The translations under genes and the position numbers were made by a program. The notes under the pieces were generated by a model that saw only the letters and a list, made by a program, of their open reading frames with translations, searched no databases and had not been told where the DNA came from. From an uncultured Fibrobacterota bacterium (GTDB taxonomy: Bacteria > Fibrobacterota > Chitinivibrionia > Chitinivibrionales > FEN-1185), in assembly GCA_963753345.1 (NCBI GenBank), contig CAVWBU010000036.1, forward strand, positions 5,599-69,598: a stretch of DNA of 64,000 nucleotides, written 5' to 3'. Position 1 is the stretch's first letter, and the number at the start of each line of letters is the position of its first letter. Of the stretch, positions 46,343 through 57,140 are shown in pieces.

Positions 46343-47500
46343 TTACCCTTCCAGCGTTATCCTCGCCCTTCCCTCGCGCTTTGACCGGTAGAGCGCCTCG
46401 TCGGTCCGCTTCACGATGCTCTTTTCGTCTTCGCCCGCCATTGCCTCCGCGATGCCGATGGAAAGGCTCACCCTTCCGAATTTGAACGCGCCGAACTGCT
46501 TGGAGATACGCTCCGCCGCGACTTTTGCCTGGTTCTTGTCGGTGTCGGGAAGAATGACGGCGAACTCGTCGCCGCCGTAACGGAAGCCGGCGTCGACGTC
46601 TTTACGGATGCATACCTTGATTACCTGGCCGAGCGACCTGAGCACCTGGTCTCCCACCTGGTGGCCTTCGGTGTCGTTGAGCTCTTTGAAGTGATCGATG
46701 TCGATGAGCATGATCGACAGCTTGCGCTGCGGGTTGCGCTTGAGCCGGGAGAGCTCGCGCACGATCTGGTCGTAGAAATGCCGCACGTTGAACAGTTCGG
46801 TGAGGCTGTCGGTGATGGCAAGCTTCGACAGCAGCTCGTTCTTCTTGACAAGCTCGTTTTCGAGCTTCTTCTTCTCCGTGATGTCCTTGGCCGTCACCAC
46901 GAGGCCGATGATCTGCTCGGCGTCGTTTTTCATCTCAGAAATGCTCAGGTTGAGAAGGATGATTTCACCCTGTTTGGTTTTCATGGGGATTTCTTCGTTC
47001 ACCGATTTTCCGGAAAGAATGACCGCATTGAGGATCTTGCGCTCGTCGGCTTCATTGACAAAAAGTTGCTTGAGCGGCACGCCTACGATCTCCTCCTGAA
47101 TGTAGCCGAAGTGCATTTCCGAGCCTTTGTTGAATTTGAGGATGAAGGCGTCGACGTCGGTGGTGAAGATGATGTCGGTCGAATCGTCCAGGATGCTCTG
47201 GAGATAGTTCGATTTCGCAAGGGTCCTTCGCATCGTAAGCTGGGTCTTCTCCATTCTCTTGACAAATTCCCTGATGTACTTGAAGAAGCCGAAGAGGAGG
47301 CCGCCAAGGAGTGAGGCGGCGAGCAACGAAACGAATGCGGCCCAGATCCATTGCGGGGACTTAAACAGCCCCAGAAACACCGCGAATACGAGAATCACCG
47401 CAAAGCACAATGCTCCCGCAGCGACAATCGTTTTTTGCGGTATACCGCTGTAGTTGTTGTAATTTGGAAGAAACGGCTTTATCAGGTTCACGTTGTTCAT
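46343..47500 (-). CDS. Membrane PAS-GGDEF diguanylate cyclase
   Basis: Two TMs, PAS, TDSLTELFN, DIDHFKELND, RYGGDEF. Confidence 0.93.
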   Translation of the reverse strand: MNNVNLIKPFLPNYNNYSGIPQKTIVAAGALCFAVILVFAVFLGLFKSPQWIWAAFVSLLAASLLGGLLFGFFKYIREFVKRMEKTQLTMRRTLAKSNYLQSILDDSTDIIFTTDVDAFILKFNKGSEMHFGYIQEEIVGVPLKQLFVNEADERKILNAVILSGKSVNEEIPMKTKQGEIILLNLSISEMKNDAEQIIGLVVTAKDITEKKKLENELVKKNELLSKLAITDSLTELFNVRHFYDQIVRELSRLKRNPQRKLSIMLIDIDHFKELNDTEGHQVGDQVLRSLGQVIKVCIRKDVDAGFRYGGDEFAVILPDTDKNQAKVAAERISKQFGAFKFGRVSLSIGIAEAMAGEDEKSIVKRTDEALYRSKREGRARITLEG

Positions 47501-47747
47501 TCACCTGATGAAATGTATCGTGAAGCGCAACCGCACTTTACAGCTTGCGCATCAACCGTTGAAAAAGGAATCATCTCATCTTATTCTACACTAATTTGTT
47601 AAATAATAGAAGCAAAAAATGAGACGCTTGGTTTTTCGGTTTGTTTAAGCGCTTATTGATGATTACGAACCATGCTCTTTTTTCTTGTACGAAATGGACA
47701 AGCATATAGTATTTATGTCCAGGTTTGAGCAACAAGTAAGGTAAATC

Positions 47748-48128
47748 ATGCTCGGCAGAATAGACAAGACAAAAGGTCAGATGGAGGCCGAAATAAGCGA
47801 CGCCGTCACCCGGTTCGAAAAAGAATTCATGGGACGGGGCCCGCTGGAGACGAGGACCTACATCATAGACGACATGGTGATCGTCCGGCTCAAGGGCGTG
47901 CTTACCAGAGCGGAATACCGCCTTGTGAAGTCGGAGCGCAACTCCAAGGCCCGCGACCTTGTCAAGCAGGTGCGCATTGAGCTGCTCGAAAACGGCAGGC
48001 CGCTGCTCGAGGACATCATCAGGGACGTGCTCAAGCGCAAGGTCAAGAGCATGCACACCGATATCAGTACCATGAGCGGGGAGCGGATCATTATCTTCAC
48101 CCTCGACAGGGCCGCTCTGGAAGACTGA
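47748..48128 (+). CDS. DUF2294 / MpsC-family protein
   Basis: TKGQMEAEIS...EKEFMGRGP...DMVIVRLKGVLT.AE...HTDIST.SGE.IIIF. Confidence 0.88.
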   Translation: MLGRIDKTKGQMEAEISDAVTRFEKEFMGRGPLETRTYIIDDMVIVRLKGVLTRAEYRLVKSERNSKARDLVKQVRIELLENGRPLLEDIIRDVLKRKVKSMHTDISTMSGERIIIFTLDRAALED

Positions 48129-48174
48129 TTCCGCATATCGCAGAGTTTTCTTTGTCGCGCCCGGCAACCGTGAG

Positions 48175-48190
48175 TGTGACATTTTTCACC
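48175..48190. promoter_or_regulatory. CRP/FNR- or Rex-like palindrome
   Basis: TGTGA-catttt-TCACC (9/10 match to TGTGA-N6-TCACA). Confidence 0.35.
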
Positions 48191-48235
48191 GGCGTGCAAT
48201 TGCGTCTAAGTTTTTTCTTGCCGTTTTCCCGGGGC

Positions 48236-48244
48236 TGTTATAAT
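48236..48244 (+). promoter_or_regulatory. Extended -10 promoter for the pckG leader
   Basis: TGtTATAAT. Confidence 0.65.
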
Positions 48245-48250
48245 TTTTTA

Positions 48251-48430
48251 GTGCCGTACGGAAGCCGCGTGCAGGCGACCTGCTTGGTCGCGGGCGCTTG
48301 CGGATGCCGGAACGGACGCGGCCGGTTTGCAACCGGCCCGGTATCAAGCCCGGTTGACTCTTGCTCAAGGGGCAGTCCGGGGGTGAGGGCCAAGGAAATG
48401 CCGAAGGGTATTTCTCTGGTCTTTTTTTTT
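48251..48430 (+). ncRNA. Putative cis-regulatory leader RNA (riboswitch/attenuator) upstream of PEPCK
   Basis: Stems 48275-48291, 48296-48349 and 48349-48381, then a terminator. cttggtc (48283-48289) is complementary to terminator 5' arm ggccaag (48388-48394). Confidence 0.65.
48386..48430 (+). terminator. Intrinsic terminator within the 5' leader of pckG
   Basis: agggccaaggaaatgcc-gaag-ggtatttctctggtc followed by T9, about 100 nt upstream of the start codon. Confidence 0.8.
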
Positions 48431-48533
48431 ACCAGGATATCCGGGATTAAAACCGATTATCAGGATAACAGGGCAACAGACGGCATCACCGCAGGAATTG
48501 CGGTGGCTTCCTGACAAGAAAGAAAGGAATACC

Positions 48534-50342
48534 ATGGATGTGAAGGCGACCGCTTCCAACAAGAAACTCGAGCAGTGGGTAAAAGACATTGCCGGCATGT
48601 GTCAACCTGACGGCGTTCACTGGTGCGACGGCTCGCAGGAGGAATACGACGGCCTGTGCGCCCGGATGGTTTCGTCGGGCATGGCCACGCAGCTCAATCC
48701 GGCAAAGAAGCCGGGGTGTTTTCTGTTCCGCAGCCACCCGTCCGACGTGGCGCGCGTCGAAGACCGTACCTACGTGGCGCCGCATTCAAAGGATGATGCC
48801 GGTCCCACAAACAACTGGATGGATCCCGACGCGCTCAAGAAGAAAATGACCGGTTTGTACACAGGCTGCATGAAGGGCCGCACCATGTATGTCATTCCTT
48901 TTTCCATGGGGCCAATCGGCTCGCCGATATCGAAAATCGGCGTGGAAATCACGGATTCGCCCTACGTTGTGGTGAACATGAGGATTATGACCCGCATGGG
49001 AAAAAGAGTGCTTGACGCGCTCGGCGCGGACGGAGAGTTCGTTCCATGCCTTCATTCGGTGGGAGCGCCGCTTGCCAAAGGACAAAAGGATTCCGCATGG
49101 CCCTGCGCGCCCGATATCGCCAACAAATACATAAGCCATTTTCCCGAGGAGCGGACCATCTGGTCGTACGGGTCGGGCTACGGCGGCAACGCGCTTCTGG
49201 GCAAGAAATGTTTCGCGCTGCGCATTGCGTCGGTGCAGGCGCGCGATGAAGGGTGGCTGGCCGAGCACATGCTTATTCTGGGCATAACCAATCCTCAGGG
49301 AAAAAAGAAGTACTTTGCGGCAGCTTTTCCAAGCGCCTGCGGCAAGACCAACCTTGCCATGATGATTCCCACGATTCCCGGCTGGAAAGTGGAAACCGTC
49401 GGCGACGACATCGCCTGGATGAAGTTCGGCCCGGACGGAAGGCTGCACGCCATCAACCCTGAATCGGGTTTTTTCGGCGTGGTGCCGGGAACCTCCATGG
49501 ATTCGAACGCCAATGCCATGCTTTCCATTGAGAAGAACACGATTTATACCAATGTAGTGCTCACTCAGGACAAAGATGTCTGGTGGGAAGGAATAGGGTT
49601 CGATCCTCCTGCGGGAAAAAACATCGACTGGACCGGACAGGAATGGGACATGACCATGCGCCGGACAGGCGCGCATCCGAATGCGCGGTTCACGGCCCCG
49701 GCCGCGCAATGCCCGGTCATTGATCCGGCATGGGAGGATCCGCAGGGAGTTCCGATAAGCGCGATCCTTGTCGGCGGCCGCAGGCCGACAACAATACCGC
49801 TTGTGCATCAGGCTTTTTCGTGGAACCACGGCGTTTTTCTCGGATCGATTGTCGGCTCTGAAACCACCACGGCAAACATCGGTGCGGTCGGCGTGGTCCG
49901 GCGCGACCCGTTTGCCATGCTTCCGTTCTGCGGATACCACATGGGCGACTATCTGGCGCATTGGATTGAAATCGGCAAGAAGACCGCGGCCGACAAACTG
50001 CCCAAGATTTTTTATGTGAACTGGTTCAGAAAAAGCGACGACGGCAAGTGGCTGTGGCCCGGCTACGGCGAAAACAGCCGGGTGCTCAAATGGATATTCG
50101 AGCGCACCGACGGCGCGACCAATGCCGTTGAATCTCCAATCGGCTACCTGCCCGCTCAAGGCGCCATAGACACCAGCGGTCTGCCGGTTGCGGCCTCGGA
50201 CATGAAGGAGCTGTTCAGGGTGGACGCAGCGGAGTGGAAGAAGGAACTGGAGGGGATCAAGGACCATTACAGGAAATTCGGATCAAGGCTGCCTGCGGCT
50301 CTTTCCGGCGAGCTTGCGGCTCTTGAGAAGCGGCTGGGATGA
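48534..50342 (+). CDS. pckG: Phosphoenolpyruvate carboxykinase (GTP)
   Basis: [64 protein letters not shown]. Confidence 0.98.
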
Positions 50343-50470
50343 CGGGCTACGATTGTTCACCAGGCTAGGGGTTTATTATATATTAATGAACCAGGCCACA
50401 ATCGCCCTTCCGGCTTGGCCAAAACCATAAAGAAACATCGCACTGCGACCACAACAGAAGGACATGAGCC

Positions 50471-51307
50471 GTGCCTTGGTTTATCAAGTCTAAGACTGCG
50501 GAAAAGCAGACCAAACCGGTCAAGGACGACATCTGGGTCAAGTGCGATTCCTGCAGCGCTCATGTTTTTAAGGAAGACTGGTACAATTCCCTCAATGTCT
50601 GTCCCAAATGCGGATTTCACGGCAAGCTCACGGCGTATGAGCGCATCGGGCAGATCCTCGACATTGAGACGTTCAAAGAAATGTTCGCCTCAATAACTCC
50701 GTCCGACCCACTCTCCTTTGTGTATGCCAAGGGCAGTTACAAAGACAAGGTGAAAGAAACCCGCGATAAAACCGGGCTCAATGAATCGGTCGTGTGCGGC
50801 ACGGGAGAAATCCATGAAATTCCCGTTTCGATAGCCGTAATGGATTTCCGGTTTTTCGGCGGCAGTCTGGGCAGCGGTACCGGAGAAAAGATCCTGCTTG
50901 CCTCAAACTACGCATACGAGCACAAAATCCCGTACATCATTTTTTCCGCCTCAGGCGGCGCGCGCATGCACGAAGGGATCCTTTCGCTCATGCAGATGGC
51001 CAAAACATGCGCCGGCATTGCACGGCTTCGCGAAAAGAAAATCCCCTACATTTCGGTCCTTACGGATCCGACGACGGGTGGCGTCGTTGCTAGTTATGCC
51101 ATGGTAGGCGACATCAACATCGCGGAACCAGGTGCGCTGGTCGGCTTTGCCGGCAGGCGCGTGATAGAGCAAACCATAAAGCAGAAACTGCCCGAAAATT
51201 TTCAGACCTCAGAGTACTTTCTTGAGCATGGCTTCATCGACCTTATCGTTGAGCGCAAGAATCTTAAAGAAACCTTGAAAAACGTTCTCCTCTACTACAC
51301 CCGGTAA
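50471..51307 (+). CDS. accD: Acetyl-CoA carboxylase carboxyltransferase beta
   Basis: WVKCDSC...CPKC zinc finger, GGSLGS, SGGARMHEG, PTTGGV, GFAGRRVI. Confidence 0.96.
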   Translation: MPWFIKSKTAEKQTKPVKDDIWVKCDSCSAHVFKEDWYNSLNVCPKCGFHGKLTAYERIGQILDIETFKEMFASITPSDPLSFVYAKGSYKDKVKETRDKTGLNESVVCGTGEIHEIPVSIAVMDFRFFGGSLGSGTGEKILLASNYAYEHKIPYIIFSASGGARMHEGILSLMQMAKTCAGIARLREKKIPYISVLTDPTTGGVVASYAMVGDINIAEPGALVGFAGRRVIEQTIKQKLPENFQTSEYFLEHGFIDLIVERKNLKETLKNVLLYYTR

Positions 51308-51331
51308 AAGGTCCCAGCGGGGCAAATTCAT

Positions 51332-52282
51332 ATGAGCGATTATCTTGAATTTGAAAAGTCGATTGCCGAGATGGAGAAAATGATCGAGAAGCTCAAATCG
51401 ATCTCTCCCGACGAGAATCATTACAGCGACGAAATCGCCGAGCTTGAGAAAAAATGCCTCCACCAGAAGCAGGAGCTATACTCCAGCCTCACACCCTGGC
51501 AGACGGTCCAGATCGCAAGGCATCCAAAGCGTCCCGTGCTGCAGGATTACATTTCGCTTATTTTTTCAGATTTCATCGAGCTTCACGGGGACCGCTGTTT
51601 CGGCGACGACCAGGCGCTCATCGGCGGGTTCGCCACCATCGGCAAGCGCCGGGTGATGCTTGTCGGCCACAACAAGGGCAAGAACGTCGACGAAAACGTA
51701 TTGCGCAATTTCGGCCAAGCAAAGCCCGAGGGATATCGCAAGGCGCTCCGTCTCATGAGGCTTGCCGAGAAGTTCAATCTGCCCATACTTTGCTTTATCG
51801 ACACGCAGGGCGCGTATCCAGGCGTCGACGCCGAAGAGCGCGGTCAGCCCGAAGCCATTGCCACCAACCTCACCGAAATGGCGCGTCTCGAAGTGCCCAT
51901 AATAGCCGTGGTCACCGGCGAAGGCGGCAGCGGCGGCGCGCTTGCCATCGGCGTGGGTGATTCGGTGCTCATGCTGTCGCATGCGGTGTATTCGGTGATT
52001 TCTCCCGAAGGGTGCGCATCCATTTTATGGCGCGATGCGTCATTTTCGCCCCAGGCCGCCGAGGCGATGAAGCCCACGGCCCAGTCGCTTCTGTCGCTGG
52101 GCGTGATAGACGAGATAATTCCTGAGCCCCTTGGAGGCGCCCACCGTAACCACGAACAGACCGGCCAGGAAATCAAGCGCGTGCTTCTCAAGCACCTCAA
52201 GAAACTGTGCGCCCAGTCTGCGTCGAGACTGGTGAGACACAGGTTCGAGAAATATTCAGCGATGGGATTGTTTGCAGATTAG
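51332..52282 (+). CDS. accA: Acetyl-CoA carboxylase carboxyltransferase alpha
   Basis: ARHPKRP, ELHGDR, PEGYRKALRLM, GEGGSGGALA, YSVISPEGCASILW. Confidence 0.97.
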   Translation: MSDYLEFEKSIAEMEKMIEKLKSISPDENHYSDEIAELEKKCLHQKQELYSSLTPWQTVQIARHPKRPVLQDYISLIFSDFIELHGDRCFGDDQALIGGFATIGKRRVMLVGHNKGKNVDENVLRNFGQAKPEGYRKALRLMRLAEKFNLPILCFIDTQGAYPGVDAEERGQPEAIATNLTEMARLEVPIIAVVTGEGGSGGALAIGVGDSVLMLSHAVYSVISPEGCASILWRDASFSPQAAEAMKPTAQSLLSLGVIDEIIPEPLGGAHRNHEQTGQEIKRVLLKHLKKLCAQSASRLVRHRFEKYSAMGLFAD

Positions 52283-52311
52283 GTGCGCGTTTTTATGATC
52301 TGACCGCAAAA

Positions 52312-52339
52312 TCACCACAGAGACACAGAGGCCACAGAG
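52312..52339. repeat. Dispersed short repeat (counterpart of 4279-4306)
   Basis: tcaccacagagacacagaggccacagag. Confidence 0.6.
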
Positions 52340-52481
52340 AAAACGAGAGCGAGAATCAAGAATGAAATTCACCAGGTGCACCGTTTTTTCAAGGCTTTCA
52401 ACTTCCAACTCTCAACTTTGAACTCTTCTTCTCTCCACGGGGTGAAAGTATTTTAGTTTTTCAAACCAACAGGATACAACC

Positions 52482-54473
52482 ATGGCCGCCATAAAAAAAC
52501 TGACCATAGAAAACAAACTCCACAAGATCCCGCTGCGCATCACCGACACCACGCTGCGCGACGCGCACCAGTCGCTGTGGGCCACCCGCATGCGCACCGC
52601 GGATATCGAAAAAATCATCGACGTCATCGACAACGTCGGCTATTATTCGCTGGAATGCTGGGGCGGCGCGACGTTCGACGTGTGCCTCCGTTTTCTCCGC
52701 GAGAACCCGTGGGAGCGTCTGAGGCTCATCAAGTCGAAGGCGAAGAAGACGCCGCTGCAGATGCTTCTGCGGGGGCAGAACCTTGTGGGATACCGCAACT
52801 ACGCCGACGACGTCGTCGACCGGTTCGTGGCCCTTGCCTGCGAAAACGGCATGGATATCTTCCGCGTGTTCGACGCGCTTAACGACACGCGCAACATCGA
52901 AGCAGCAGTGAGGGCGGTCAAGAAACACGGCGGTCACGCGCAGGGGACGCTGTGCTACACCATAAGCCCGGTGCACACCATCAAGAAATTCGTGTCGTAC
53001 GCGCGCGAGCAGAAACAGCTCGGCGTGGATTCGATTTGCATCAAGGACATGGCGGGAATTCTTTCGCCCATCATGGCCGAGCGGCTCGTGAGCGCGCTTA
53101 TCAAGGAGCTTGAAATACCCATCCAGCTCCATTGCCATGCCAGTTCCGGCATGGCGATCTCCAGCTACGTTGAAGGCGTCCGCGCCGGCGCGGGCGCGAT
53201 CGACTGCGCCATTGCCGCAATGGCCGGAACCAGCAGCCAACCGCCTGTTGAGACCATGGCCGCCATTTTTTCGGAGACCGACTATCACGCCGATCTCAAC
53301 CGTGATGCCATGCTCCGCGTGCACCGGTACTTTGCCGACCTGTACGCTCAGCGCAACACCGACACGTCGCTCGTGTTCTGCATCGACCCCCAGATCCTCA
53401 TCCACCAGATCCCGGGCGGCATGATCTCGAACTTCCGCTCCCAGCTCGCGAAGCAGAATGCGCTTGACAAACTGGAGGACGCGCTCACGGAAGTCACGCG
53501 CGTGCGCGAGGACCTCGGATGGCCGCCGCTCGTGACGCCCACGAGCCAGATCGTGGGGACACAGGCGGTGATGAACGTGCTTTCCGGCGAGCGATACAAG
53601 ATCGTCCCCAACGAGGTGAAGGACTATTTCCGCGGCCTGTACGGCCGCGCGCCGGCAAACGTGAACCCGGAACTGGCAAAGAAGATCCTCGGCGACGAGA
53701 AGCCCATCACCGTGCGGCCCGGCGACACCATCGCTCCCATGCTGCCCAAGGCGACCGAGGGAATAGATCCCAAGTACATCAAGAACGAGGAAGACATTAT
53801 TTCGTACTGCATTCTTCCCGAGCCGAGCCTTGAGTATTTCAAGTGGCGCGACATGCCGCCGGACAAGCGTCCCGAAACGCCGGCGGACCTGGAGCTTAAG
53901 AAACTGAGCGCTGCCGCAGAAAAGAAAACCGCGGTGACAACGGAGAAGAAAGAGGAGGCTCCTTTCCTCGACCAGATACTGCACCCCGAAGATTACCGCG
54001 GACTCGGCGAACTCCTCAACAGGGCCGGAGGGCTTCGGCTTGACGAATTGACAGTTAAGAAAGGCGATTTTTCCCTGTCGCTCAGATCGGACACCACGAG
54101 AATGCCTGTAATTCCCAAACCGGTTCCAACTGCCGCTCCCGGGGAGGCTTCTACAAAAAAAGAGGGCAAACCGGCAGAAGCCGGACCCGCGGCCGCAAAG
54201 GAAGAAAAGAGCGCGCCGATCCCAACGGTTGGACCGTCGATCAAGGCGCCTCTGGTCGGCGCGTTCTATTCCACGTCCGGACCGGGCAAGCCGAAGCTTG
54301 TGAACGTGGGAGACGTGGTGGAGGCCGGGACCAAGGTGTGCATCGTGGAGGCCATGAAGCTGTTCAACGAGATAGTTGCCCCTGTCAGGTGCAAGATCCT
54401 TCAGTTCCTCGTGGAGGACGGGACCACGGTGGAAAAGAACCAGCCGCTGATTGCCATAGAAGAATTAAAGTAA
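52482..54473 (+). CDS. Pyruvate/oxaloacetate carboxyltransferase (PycB/OadA/transcarboxylase 5S-like) fused to AccB-type biotin carboxyl carrier
   Basis: LRDAHQSL, ECWGGATFD, QMLLRGQN, IKDMAG, HCH, PGGMISN, PPLVTPTSQIVG; C-terminal APLVGAFYSTSGPGKPKLV...EAMKLFNEI. Confidence 0.9.
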   Translation: MAAIKKLTIENKLHKIPLRITDTTLRDAHQSLWATRMRTADIEKIIDVIDNVGYYSLECWGGATFDVCLRFLRENPWERLRLIKSKAKKTPLQMLLRGQNLVGYRNYADDVVDRFVALACENGMDIFRVFDALNDTRNIEAAVRAVKKHGGHAQGTLCYTISPVHTIKKFVSYAREQKQLGVDSICIKDMAGILSPIMAERLVSALIKELEIPIQLHCHASSGMAISSYVEGVRAGAGAIDCAIAAMAGTSSQPPVETMAAIFSETDYHADLNRDAMLRVHRYFADLYAQRNTDTSLVFCIDPQILIHQIPGGMISNFRSQLAKQNALDKLEDALTEVTRVREDLGWPPLVTPTSQIVGTQAVMNVLSGERYKIVPNEVKDYFRGLYGRAPANVNPELAKKILGDEKPITVRPGDTIAPMLPKATEGIDPKYIKNEEDIISYCILPEPSLEYFKWRDMPPDKRPETPADLELKKLSAAAEKKTAVTTEKKEEAPFLDQILHPEDYRGLGELLNRAGGLRLDELTVKKGDFSLSLRSDTTRMPVIPKPVPTAAPGEASTKKEGKPAEAGPAAAKEEKSAPIPTVGPSIKAPLVGAFYSTSGPGKPKLVNVGDVVEAGTKVCIVEAMKLFNEIVAPVRCKILQFLVEDGTTVEKNQPLIAIEELK

Positions 54474-54496
54474 GACTACGAAAAAGATGGGCGTTC

Positions 54497-54544
54497 CCCC
54501 GGCTGTGCAGAGGCGTAGCGCGCTACGCCTCTGCACAGCCGGGG
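54497..54544. repeat. Perfect 48-bp palindrome within a REP-like composite (to ~54660)
   Basis: ccccggctgtgcagaggcgtagcg|cgctacgcctctgcacagccgggg. Confidence 0.85.
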
Positions 54545-54730
54545 TCGGTCTCCCTACGGGCTCGGCTATTCGCCTCGTTGCCGGACCGCCCCTAGTCGCC
54601 TTCGGCGAGGGGTCGGCCGGCAATGCGCTCTGGCGCACCCTCCGGTCCCCCTAACGCGGCGGCAACGGAATTCATTTCAGTCAATTACTTCTTCTTGCGC
54701 CAATTGGTATCCACCTAGTCAACGTTATTT

Positions 54731-54764
54731 CTTCTCAACTCCTCAACTTCTCAACCTCTCAACT
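54731..54764. repeat. 8-mer tandem repeat (inverted copy of 6190-6214)
   Basis: cttctcaactcctcaacttctcaacctctcaact. Confidence 0.7.
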
Positions 54765-55168
54765 AATCTTCTTGGTGCCCCCGCGACCAAGGTTTCTTTC
54801 TTGCAAATTTACTCTCTAGGGGGCTACCCAAGAGAGGAAAGCGCCCGCCCAACAGGAAGGGCGGAAAGCGCTGCCGAGGACCGCGAAGAGGGCCGAGGCC
54901 GGGGGAGACGACCCTTGGAAGTATGCCCCTTCGGGCATCCCTGAAGAGGGACCCGACGGGGTATACCTCTCCCCCGACAAATCTTTTGATGTAATAGCAA
55001 CCCTGCCTGCCGGAATTGTTGATTTTTCGCCCCCGACAGAGTAATTTTTAAGCGTTTTAGGGGGGTAATCAAATCCTCGATTTGTGGGACGGCGCAACCA
55101 GACGTAAATGATTGCGGCGGTATGTGTTGACTACTGCGACATCACATGAGTCGGAAGCCTGGAAAACC

Positions 55169-57140
55169 ATGATATCGTCATCAATAAAAACTCGGGTGGG
55201 GCTGCGCCGGGGTGTCGGCAAGAATGCAGAGCCTTCAGTCACCCAACGAACTTGTACCGCTCTGGCTTTTTTCCTTCTCGCTGCGGCGCTGTTTGCCGGC
55301 AGCAGTGCGCAATCTCCCGACGAGCCCATCATAACTCCTTTTGGCCAGACGGGGCTCAAGTACACCGAAAGCGCGAAAACGCTCGGCGCCGGGAGGCTGG
55401 TTTTTTCGGCGTTCGGCGATATGAGCCTTGACGCTTCGGAAATAGATTATGTCAATATCAACAACCTCAGCGTCGACCGAGGACTAACGCCCAAAAGCAA
55501 CCAGTACTCCCTTATGCCCGCGTTGGGGTTGGGCATTACCCGCATCCTGGATTTTTCCGCCGCCCTTCCATTGAACATCGACTGGACGTCACGGTACGCG
55601 GATACAATTTTCGGTCATGTGGAAGGTTACGGAGGTCTGCAGGGCGGCATCGGCGATCTGGAAATGAAGCTCAAACTGCAGGTGCCTCCGCGCAACGGCC
55701 CGCGTGTTGTCGATATGGCGCTGCTGGCGGGAATGAGCGTGCCCACGGGCAGCAAGACACAGGGATTTTTTCCCCGCCACACTTACTACCTTCTTAAGGA
55801 TTCCTTGTTGACGAACACGCCCAGCGGCGACACCGCGCAGGCCATTTCGGAATATTATTCGTCGGGCGCCGTGGAAACCGAAGGGAAAATCATCCTTACC
55901 TTCAACTGCTGGGAACACGGCGCCGTGATTCCGCTCCAATTGCATCTCAATCTCGGGACCCGGCTCATTTTGGCGCGCGGATTCGATGAAGTCATCCTTT
56001 TTGATGCCGCAGCCGAATACAGGCCCGCGCCGTGGTTTTCACTGTATGCGGAATTGAGCGCGGAACCGAGGCTGGGCAGCATCACAAACGGATTCAAAAT
56101 CGGCGAACGACCCGCTCAGGATTTCTCCGGGTTTCACCATGCACCTCCCGGAAGGCATGTTTATCTCGTTGGGCGGCGACTGGGGACTTTCCTCGCACGA
56201 TCCCATCACCTACGAAAAGGACGGCTCCTTCACCGAGGCGCGGCTGCAGCCCGATTGGATGGTGAGCGTGGCGGTGGGATGGACCGGGTTCCTTTACAAG
56301 GTTGAACCCGGGAAGAAAGTGGTAAAGAGCGGCGACAGCGACAACGACGGAATCCCGGATTCAATTGACAAATGCCCCATGGTTCCCGAGGACTGGGACG
56401 GGTTTGAAGACCAGGACGGGTGTCCGGATTACGACAACGACAAGGACGGCATCGCCGACTCCGTCGACGAGTGCCCCGACGATCCCGAGGATTACGACGG
56501 GTTCAAGGACAAGGACGGATGTCCGGACCCGGACAACGATAGGGACGGCATCTGCGATCCTTGGGTCGCCGACCAGCACCGCGAGGACCAGTATGCAAAG
56601 ATCTGCACGGGCGTTGACAAATGCCCCAACCTGCCTGAGGATTTCGACGGGTTTGAAGACCAGGACGGTTGCCCGGACTACGACAACGACCTTGACGGCG
56701 TTCCCGACAGCCTCGACAGGTGCCCCAACGAACCCGGCCCTGCCGACAACCAGGGATGCCCCAAGCCAGTGGAGGCTCCGAAGGTAAAAGAGATCAAACA
56801 CGGCAGGCTTATTCTCAAAGGCGTCGAATTCAAGGGAACCTCCGCCGATCTTACGGCAGAGTCCTTTCAGAAACTCGACGACGTTTTCGAATCGCTCAAA
56901 GCGTATCCGGGAACAAAGATTGAGATTTGCGGTTACACCGACAACACCGGCAACCCGGCCGCCAACAAAAAGATTTCGCTGCGCCGCGCCGAAACCGTCC
57001 GGGCCTACCTTATTCTGCGCGGGATAGATTCCTCCCGCATCACCGCCGTAGGCAAGGGCCCGGAGGATCCGATCACCAACAATACGACCCCCGAGGGCCG
57101 CGCGTTCAACCGTCGTATCGAAATGAAGCGCATCGACTGA
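55169..57140 (+). CDS. OmpA-family protein: beta-barrel + TSP3 Ca-binding repeats + OmpA-C; apparent +1 frameshift near 56105
   Basis: ORFs 55112-56305 and 56139-57140 join as ...GFKIG[N]DPLRISPGFTMHL..., matching the paralog's DPLSLTPGIRI. DxDxDG repeats; GYTDN...NRRIE. Start uncertain. Confidence 0.82.

Follow-up and report, generated by a model that had tools for sequence, protein, structure and literature searches.

Gene content of the locus

The 64,000-nt stretch of DNA analysed here (hereafter the window), which belongs to contig CAVWBU010000036.1 of an uncultured member of the Chitinivibrionales (Fibrobacterota), encodes a small DUF2294 protein, MpsC, followed by four genes of carboxyl-group metabolism and, in the gap between them, a structured leader RNA. 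All five genes are located on the plus strand with coordinates unchanged from the first-pass annotation, which had placed mpsC before four co-oriented genes handling CO2 or carboxyl groups. This description held, as all five products were identified by Pfam and the phosphoenolpyruvate carboxykinase (PEPCK), AccD and AccA additionally by NCBIfam equivalog models.

The mpsC gene (47748..48128, 126 aa) matches DUF2294/PF10057 over the complete profile (positions 1-111 of 111) with 128.9 bits against a cut-off of 23 (E 1e-37). It is followed by pckG for a GTP-dependent PEPCK (48534..50342; NF003253 equivalog, 969 bits vs cut-off 504; PEPCK_N and PEPCK_GTP), whose frame has its Pfam match region at 48498/48534-50342 and its ATG at 48534. 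Next are accD for the carboxyltransferase beta subunit (50471..51307; TIGR00515, 372.9 bits vs cut-off 317; Carboxyl_trans and Zn_ribbon_ACC), accA for the alpha subunit (51332..52282; NF004344, 477 bits vs cut-off 357; Pfam ACCA, with TIGR00513 also above its cut-off), and a gene for a 663-aa fusion of a 5S-type (PycB/OadA-like) carboxyltransferase with an AccB-like biotin carrier (52482..54473; HMGL-like, PYC_OADA and Biotin_lipoyl). Our scan listed no plus-strand terminator-like site in the pck-accD and accA-fusion gaps, and pck, accD, accA and the fusion gene are each single-copy in the window genome (accD and accA as sole copies by tblastn).

The assembly of this genome (G000) is 94% complete, and any absence reported here has to be read against that value. 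Profile searches of the assembly detected neither a beta-carbonic anhydrase nor DabA (PF10070), and mpsC is present as a single copy with enzyme genes as neighbours. The earlier statement that mpsC has no transporter partner was thus borne out for the whole assembly, and the locus does not resemble an mpsABC/DabAB uptake operon. Sequence of the window is present in peat and freshwater-sediment metagenomes.

A structured leader between mpsC and pckG

The gap between mpsC and pck (48129-48533, 405 nt) has a minimum free energy z-score of -3.2, a level reached by one shuffle in 100. It has no second copy in the window genome, which rules out the leader as a copy of the interspersed repeat of this genome found at 54474-55111. 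A hairpin followed by nine U residues occupies 48389-48430 (stem 48389-48421, of which the scan lists the inner stem 48394-48415), so that a G+C-rich stem is directly followed by a U-tract as in an intrinsic terminator; the pck ribosome-binding site and start codon are located about 100 nt further 3'. This terminator is the last part of an 88-nt conserved motif (48342..48429), which starts with a two-stem P1/P2 hairpin with an internal loop and continues through a purine-rich linker into the terminator with its U9 tract. The rebuilt covariance model R2, described below, matches the motif in the window with 64.4 bits (E 6.5e-13). The fold z-score, the hairpin with U9 and the covariance match support the first-pass view that a structured leader with a terminator separates mpsC from the enzymes.

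Directly upstream of this motif, the 5' part of the leader (48254..48341) holds hairpins conserved at genus level; in the alignment of six family-f1 leaders, the block GGAAGCYG is conserved, and the stem after it varies on both sides. Ahead of the leader, a promoter-like element of the pck operon, TTGCCG-15 nt-TATAAT (48218..48244), was read from the sequence, and its absence from the consensus scan list is explained by the 15-nt spacer. The element keeps its position in family f1, including a pck locus situated on another contig than mpsC (G003), and TTGACA/TATAAT-like (sigma-70-like) hexamers occur at the same place 3' of mpsC in other phyla. A small hairpin with a U-run (48191..48216; terminator-like scan, six pairs), which could be the mpsC terminator, was by eye not conserved in relatives, and a promoter-like site 5' of mpsC (47559..47587; consensus scan, 9/12 matches) is a consensus match only. 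The conserved promoter-like element in this gap makes it probable that mpsC forms a unit of its own and acts in trans. The claim that mpsC heads the cluster therefore stands as to its position before the enzymes, but probably not as to a shared transcription unit.

Three further candidate features of the leader were rejected by eye: a leader peptide, as relatives do not share the ATG of the window leader; a direct-repeat protein site, which fails in family f2; and a UCA/UGA pairing of the 5' flank with the linker, which shows no covariation outside Fibrobacterota. In many gaps from other phyla (L079, L093, L095, L110, L129, L087, L118 and L143), we noticed by eye a second, small hairpin-plus-terminator element (GAGGGG, hairpin, CCUGUCAA) 5' of the modelled leader, which suggests tandem attenuators there. 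No clear copy of this GAGGGG-hairpin-CCUGUCAA element was seen by eye in the window gap.

Conservation of the leader across phyla

The comparative analysis drew on 151 Fibrobacterota genomes (phylum sample), 41 genomes of the Chitinivibrionales (order sample), 40 genomes around a Desulfocapsa metagenome-assembled genome as second clade sample, and a cross-phylum sample of 80 MpsC loci (934 kb, both strands scanned) from Planctomycetota, Desulfobacterota, Verrucomicrobiota, Hydrogenedentota, Spirochaetales, Lentisphaerae and others. The covariance model R1 was built from 13 Chitinivibrionales leaders, with matches taken at E<=0.1, and was rebuilt as R2, with matches taken at E<=0.01.

Within the order, mpsC is located directly 5' of pck, a 700-aa PEPCK variant or accD in 20 of the 27 MpsC-positive relatives, with accA and the fusion gene following, and most of the mpsC-pck/accD gaps end in the same hairpin-terminator. 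The alignment of the 13 leaders showed compensatory changes in 17 of the 24 pairs of the consensus structure. Application of R1 to the 80 loci yielded 36 matches, 35 of them on the mpsC strand and 33 of these at 132-391 nt 3' of mpsC, while the one remaining match, on the minus strand of L096 (E 0.067), has the appearance of a chance hit. In the resulting 36-sequence alignment, which was fitted to the covariance model and whose fit favours the structure, 91.8% of the cells pair, where shuffles reach 65.9% and slid controls 37-53%; changes on both sides were found in 23 of the 24 pairs, and P1, P2 and the terminator all covary. For the terminator helix, 95.8% of the cells pair, and 12 of 13 pairs show compensatory changes. 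R2 recovered 47 of the 80 loci, including 12 outside the training set, nine of which are located directly 3' of mpsC and three directly 5' of pck or DUF4914. Features conserved across phyla comprise a GU at the start of P1, the P2 internal loop with CGGGC opposite GUGCG, and the linker GGAA-N3-4-AAGGCCG leading into the terminator.

Searches of Rfam 15 gave no match for the leader at E<=1, and ten related loci returned only tRNAs at the gathering score. Our literature search, which did not cover supplements, found no description of a CO2-linked leader RNA or an MpsC-leader module. Judged by this sequence evidence, the leader is a real conserved RNA, structured, covarying and absent from Rfam, and as a conserved structured 5' leader with covariation it shares the general hallmark of a riboswitch.

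Genes associated with mpsC and the leader

Genes found directly 3' of the leader are pck, the 700-aa PEPCK, accD, DUF4914, carB, purE, purC and accC. Further targets include a Hexapep gene (gamma-carbonic-anhydrase-like by family), an HMGL-like gene, a 2-oxoacid:ferredoxin oxidoreductase and an AA_permease-EIIA fusion, as well as, once, phosphoglucose isomerase. Paralogous mpsC copies in relatives have DUF4914, purK-purE, biotin carboxylase, a Pro_CA_2 carbonic anhydrase, carA and Sua5 as neighbours, and weaker variants of the leader (15-28 bits) occur 3' of such copies. Among the loci with enough sequence, an enzyme consuming or producing CO2/HCO3- is encoded in the 5 kb downstream of mpsC in 31 of 66 cases, and in the 5 kb upstream in 8 of 71, both values being lower bounds since the neighbour labels were limited to the queried families; 27 of the 80 loci had no labelable neighbour. 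The neighbourhood survey suggested in the first-pass annotation thus returned carboxylation enzymes downstream of mpsC across phyla, and MpsC, the leader and CO2/bicarbonate genes recur together, with R1 matches on the mpsC strand in 35 of the 80 loci. We conclude that the MpsC-leader module is real and widespread. Named carriers of the module include Desulfosarcina variabilis (L131) and Desulfatitalea alkaliphila (L098).

The proximity of mpsC to many different CO2/HCO3- enzymes could also be explained if MpsC, instead of being a regulator, assisted carboxylating enzymes as an accessory subunit or chaperone, for instance by delivering or retaining CO2/bicarbonate at PEPCK-like and ATP-grasp carboxylases. 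In line with this, mpsC of family f9 is located 8-88 nt 5' of DUF4914 (ORF calls), and the founding member lies within the mpsABC operon of Staphylococcus aureus, according to the accessible part of PMC6689103. However, a single 126-aa protein would need to serve unrelated enzyme folds, and mpsC mostly lies outside the leader-gated unit, with one copy per several leader loci (G008 and G016, each with two leaders and one MpsC). The receiver (REC) and Usp fusions described below suit signalling better, and the same source, as far as accessible, reports that MpsAB functions without mpsC, both in S. aureus and when complementing E. coli. We therefore consider an enzyme-accessory role improbable.

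In other phyla, the commonest gene 3' of the leader encodes a family of ~570-660 aa (L079 3312-5084, L093 8676-10481 and 10 more loci; L189, L192, L193) for which no Pfam, NCBIfam or PDB match was obtained. Its only stretch in common with DUF4914 is a P-loop-like GxxAGKSE (E 0.032, one pairwise comparison), and for DUF4914 itself no relative was found in the PDB. An AA_permease::PTS_EIIA_2 protein (~612-620 aa) is encoded after mpsC or the leader at two unrelated loci (L060 4100-5938, L142 7715-9577) and may represent an uncharacterised transporter of the same regulon.

Co-occurrence of MpsC and the leader

Among the 41 relatives of the order, the RNA was detected in 19 genomes, all of them MpsC-positive, and in none of the 13 MpsC-negative genomes. 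Across the phylum, 35 of the 151 genomes have both, 18 MpsC only, 5 the RNA only and 93 neither; the five RNA-only matches reach 29-35 bits, and the one inspected (G132) looks like a plain terminator. Within the Desulfocapsa group, MpsC is present in 4 of the 40 genomes, and matches of at least 53 bits are restricted to these four, with two to three copies each, located 5' of carB and of a ~570-aa gene followed by purE; eight MpsC-negative genomes of this group have matches of 32-43 bits. In both of these unrelated clades, strong leader matches (at least 50 bits) were seen in no genome without MpsC, and the MpsC-leader association recurs in two phyla. Co-occurrence had been named in the first-pass annotation as one of the points on which its proposal would stand or fall, and the proposal withstood this test, with strong matches in 35 Fibrobacterota and 4 Desulfocapsa-group genomes, all of them MpsC-positive. 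This distribution makes regulation of the attenuator by MpsC in trans the most likely reading.

Several weak matches in MpsC-negative genomes were rejected as leaders: L183 and L186 correspond to tRNA 3' ends with terminators, and L184, L185, L187 and L188 resemble ordinary terminators. The weak matches of G189 sit 5' of DUF3450-ExbB.

Where insertions part mpsC from pck, the leader stays with pck, as seen for insertions of 1.1 kb (G002, L032) and 2.4 kb (G007, L036), which in G002 hold a DUF1016_N ORF and in G007 a type IX secretion system (T9SS)-tail protein together with an ORF6N gene. These two loci, and the leader with its promoter-like element at the unlinked pck locus of G003, speak for a pck unit that is separate from mpsC.

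A putative PEPCK-fed transcarboxylase

The 5S-type part of the 663-aa fusion is recognised by the domain model NF006761 (PycB type) with 755 bits vs a cut-off of 402, and residues 508-660 match TIGR00531, the biotin carboxyl carrier protein (BCCP) of acetyl-CoA carboxylase, over positions 6-155 of 156 with 104 bits vs a cut-off of 115. The fusion carries the biotinylation motif EAMKL, and the translation of its 5S-type domain displays RD-HQS, KDMAG and HxH, which we take to be the catalytic motifs of this domain. The protein hence combines a PycB-type carboxyltransferase with a BCCP.

Several known biotin-dependent systems fit the gene content incompletely. Of a heteromeric acetyl-CoA carboxylase, AccA and AccD are present, but neither AccC nor a free AccB: in the window genome, tblastn with the AccC of a relative finds only CarB-like genes (21-22% identity), and no free-standing AccB was detected. 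Biotin_lipoyl occurs at four places in this genome, the other three being in ORFs of 406, 462 and 212 aa, and the sole small-carrier-type (AccB-like) biotin domain is the tail of the fusion. FabD is present. For a two-subunit pyruvate carboxylase, no PycA biotin carboxylase partner was detected in the window genome. For a Na+-pumping oxaloacetate decarboxylase, the fusion remains below the cut-off of TIGR01108 (676 vs 756.5 bits), and OAD_beta/PF03977 (OadB) was not found in the genome. The gene set does match that of a biotin-dependent transcarboxylase, namely CoA-ester and 5S-type carboxyltransferases with a biotin carrier and no biotin carboxylase.

The same pattern extends to the order. 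PF02785 was not found in any of the eight genomes of family f1, of which five are 95-99% complete. It occurs in 14 of the 41 genomes of the order, compared with 13 of 14 control genomes, leaving 27 of 41 genomes in which a biotin carboxylase was not found, while AccA and the full-length fusion are each encoded in all 41, usually adjacent. Based on these counts, AccA/AccD and the fusion probably constitute a PEPCK-fed oxaloacetate:acetyl-CoA transcarboxylase. In this pathway, PEPCK would add CO2 to phosphoenolpyruvate, forming oxaloacetate along with GTP. The 5S domain would then transfer the carboxyl group of oxaloacetate to the fused biotin arm, and AccA/AccD would pass it on to acetyl-CoA, which would yield malonyl-CoA and pyruvate without ATP and without a biotin carboxylase. 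The four genes, described earlier as a cluster of carboxylation genes, were correctly identified as such, but probably form one pathway of PEPCK and transcarboxylase instead of four independent functions. Two observations argue against this assignment: the accD-accA-fusion operon is likewise retained in those 14 genomes of the order in which a biotin carboxylase was found, suggesting that the fused carrier can also serve an ATP-dependent route, and the absence of the biotin carboxylase in the window genome rests on a 94%-complete assembly.

An ATP-independent precedent is the methylmalonyl-CoA:pyruvate transcarboxylase of Propionibacterium (12S/5S/1.3S), which likewise combines a 5S carboxyltransferase, a biotin carrier and a CoA-ester carboxyltransferase. 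In contrast to that enzyme, the CoA-ester half here is AccA/AccD (acetyl-CoA type) and not 12S, and the carrier is AccB-like and fused to 5S; the fusion reaches 502 bits with NF008984, below the cut-off of 827. The oxaloacetate:acetyl-CoA transcarboxylase reaction itself has been reported for a protein of Entamoeba histolytica, as described in the accessible part of PMC8136499, where the enzyme of this species and its relatives is attributed to Clark 2007 and Barbosa-Cabrera 2012. By that description, the predicted chemistry is the same and an acyl-CoA carboxyltransferase, a 5S-type domain and a biotin carrier are combined without a biotin carboxylase; the Entamoeba enzyme is, however, one protist protein, whereas three genes (accD, accA and 5S::BCCP) together with PEPCK and an RNA leader are found here. 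No paper on a bacterial accDA-based transcarboxylase was found in our literature search, which did not include supplements.

The MpsC protein and its proposed regulation of the leader

MpsC of the window is a mildly basic protein (pI 9.3) without a long hydrophobic stretch and, by inspection of its sequence, soluble. Its invariant residues are E13, R30, E56, K73, R76, D105 and E112. At E<=0.001, its family (PF10057) counts 1418 representatives. Twelve of the longer ones were scanned, and two of these are fusions, REC-MpsC (P0089, 292 aa) and Usp-MpsC (P0116, 287 aa); in both, MpsC is C-terminal, which in response regulators is the output position; a word-index search for longer fused forms found three, none with an extra domain. 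An ESM Atlas search with an MpsC homologue gave no usable match. CsrA was rejected as an RNA-binding partner, as it is absent from the window genome and therefore not a general partner. The literature on DUF2294/MpsC yielded nothing beyond the work on S. aureus. One homologue (P0152) is labelled 'uncharacterized protein YbcI' by one source (JGI), and the control search rings include Bacillus subtilis, so that a member in a model organism may exist for genetics.

Alternatively, MpsC could be a DNA-binding transcription factor whose target is the promoter immediately 3' of mpsC, with the leader as an independent attenuator that shares the operons by coincidence. The conserved promoter-like element directly 3' of mpsC and the mildly basic character of the protein would agree with such a role, as would the resemblance of REC-MpsC to a response regulator with a C-terminal output domain. 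We give this explanation little credence, since neither Pfam nor NCBIfam revealed a helix-turn-helix or other DNA-binding family, the family-f1 promoter alignment shows by eye no conserved palindromic operator, and it is the RNA motif that accompanies MpsC across phyla, while promoter sequences vary.

Instead, we favour MpsC as a trans-acting regulator of the leader attenuator within a two-unit locus with the PEPCK-fed transcarboxylase, a reading that we place slightly short of an even chance. It is suggested by the position of mpsC just outside the leader-gated unit, by genomes with one MpsC and several leaders, by the co-occurrence, and by the C-terminal place of MpsC in the fusions. According to this model, the first unit would consist of mpsC alone, and the second would start at its own promoter just 3' of mpsC. 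The transcript of the second unit would run through a ~280-nt leader, with the conserved hairpin, linker and terminator as its last 88 nt, and by default most transcripts would end at the leader terminator. MpsC, acting in trans on the leader, would respond to a signal linked to the supply of inorganic carbon by changing the frequency of terminator formation, and read-through would express pckG-accD-accA-(5S carboxyltransferase::BCCP). The first-pass annotation had proposed DUF2294 as an inorganic-carbon sensor or RNA-binding (anti)terminator; the regulatory part gains support from the recurring module with the leader, whereas the sensor part does not, as the REC and Usp fusions place MpsC as an output domain.

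Several findings count against the model. Pfam and NCBIfam gave no second family and no nucleic-acid-binding domain for MpsC, and sequence and profile searches of the PDB returned no relative. A delta-mpsC mutant of S. aureus had no growth phenotype, according to the available part of PMC6689103. At the genome level, 18 of the 53 MpsC-positive genomes of the phylum lack a leader match at E<=0.01, and the two-by-two counts overstate the association because related genomes are non-independent. A genuine leader copy 5' of purE and pyruvate:ferredoxin oxidoreductase (PFOR) is present in G165, a 2.2-Mb assembly of unstated completeness in which MpsC was not found. Leader copies unlinked to mpsC occur in G003, G008, G016, G027, G032 and G038; they fit trans action, yet fit a stand-alone riboswitch equally well.

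Such a riboswitch would be a small aptamer abutting or embedded in the terminator and responding to a carboxylation-linked ligand (bicarbonate or a carbon-supply metabolite), with MpsC not touching the RNA and kept nearby for another reason. Besides the unlinked copies and the G165 leader, the covarying hairpin, the conserved internal loop and the purine linker running into the terminator speak for it, and the accessible text of PMC6478431 describes a terminator-embedded aptamer for the HMP-PP (thiS motif) riboswitch. However, RNAs of this kind track their downstream genes, whereas here it is the upstream mpsC that accompanies 33 of the 35 first-round matches through many phyla. Moreover, mpsC lies outside the regulated unit, behind a promoter-like element, as is typical for a regulator gene, matches of at least 50 bits are restricted to MpsC-positive genomes of two unrelated clades, and across phyla the hairpin has few invariant nucleotides. 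We thus regard the stand-alone riboswitch as possible, if rather doubtful. Returning to MpsC as a regulator of the leader, we propose with similar reserve a more far-reaching version, in which MpsC and the leader would together be a direct CO2/bicarbonate sensor, a multi-phylum protein-RNA attenuation system that in Chitinivibrionales would gate an ATP-free, GTP-yielding route from phosphoenolpyruvate, CO2 and acetyl-CoA to malonyl-CoA and pyruvate, replacing acetyl-CoA carboxylase in most of the order.

Comparison with known regulatory systems

The arrangement has parallels in the hut operon of Bacillus subtilis, in which the small regulator gene hutP comes first and a terminator before the structural genes is read through in response to a ligand. 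The locus may be seen as analogous in its first-placed regulator gene, the terminator in the gap and a protein proposed to decide on read-through. It differs in that a promoter-like element separates mpsC from the leader, that the leader is a covarying hairpin whereas the HutP site consists of repeated triplets, and that MpsC matches only PF10057 and has no sequence relation to HutP; in general, no homology of MpsC to protein-dependent attenuation families (HutP, PyrR and ANTAR types) was found by Pfam, NCBIfam and PDB searches. ANTAR response regulators such as AmiR and EutV combine a receiver with a C-terminal RNA-binding antitermination domain that recognises hairpins beside terminators, and REC-MpsC (P0089) shares this layout of receiver and C-terminal domain. 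Unlike these, MpsC is mostly stand-alone, with no ANTAR match and a REC fusion in one of the 12 longer representatives scanned.

The HMP-PP riboswitch, as outlined in the available part of PMC6478431, resembles the leader described here in that a very small conserved 5' element is fused to an intrinsic terminator. The present leader differs from it in having no Rfam match, another regulon and a constant upstream protein-gene partner. With mpsABC of S. aureus, the locus has PF10057 and a link to inorganic-carbon supply in common, and mpsA is down-regulated at 5% CO2 there, both as far as the accessible portion of PMC6689103 extends. In contrast to S. aureus, no MpsA/MpsB (DabA) was found in the window genome, and the partners of mpsC are CO2-consuming enzymes behind an RNA leader.

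Neighbouring features

Divergent to mpsC, a gene for a PAS-GGDEF diguanylate cyclase is encoded on the minus strand (46343..47500; Pfam GGDEF E 1e-40, and PAS). In 14 relatives from the order, such a gene is likewise divergent to mpsC, and it is not a general neighbour among the 80 loci of other phyla; its adjacency may reflect a lineage-specific cyclic di-GMP link or plain synteny.

At the other end, an interspersed structured repeat (54474..55111, no strand assigned) with a 24-bp palindrome (54492-54547) follows the fusion gene and is the probable operon end. Copies of this repeat were found by blastn in the hundreds on many contigs, and the perfect palindrome caused spurious Rfam microRNA matches; the ORFs called at 54816-55365 are probably not genes. 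In relatives (L039, 7611-8516; L081, L108, L149), a convergent HDOD-domain gene is located 3' of the fusion gene, for which no tblastn match was obtained in the window genome, where the repeat-filled gap occupies its place. The accA-fusion gap (52283-52481, 199 nt) contains short low-complexity repeats recurring elsewhere in the genome and is much shorter in relatives; together with the pck-accD gap it gave 44 blastn lines in the genome, self-matches counted.

Implications

How heterotrophic bacteria sense CO2 or bicarbonate is, as far as the partly accessible literature tells, largely unknown, though most of them need it for carboxylations. The locus described here offers a concrete, testable candidate, in which an orphan protein family is combined with an uncatalogued RNA whose targets are almost all CO2/HCO3- enzymes, and points to an undescribed bacterial way of tuning carboxylation genes. 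As regards the enzymes, the database names 'pyruvate carboxylase subunit B' and 'oxaloacetate decarboxylase' for the fusion mask the possibility of a transcarboxylase. If the proposed activity is true, an order of Fibrobacterota would make malonyl-CoA from oxaloacetate by transcarboxylation, saving one ATP per malonyl-CoA, which would be of relevance for the energetics of anaerobes and for the engineering of an ATP-free malonyl-CoA supply.

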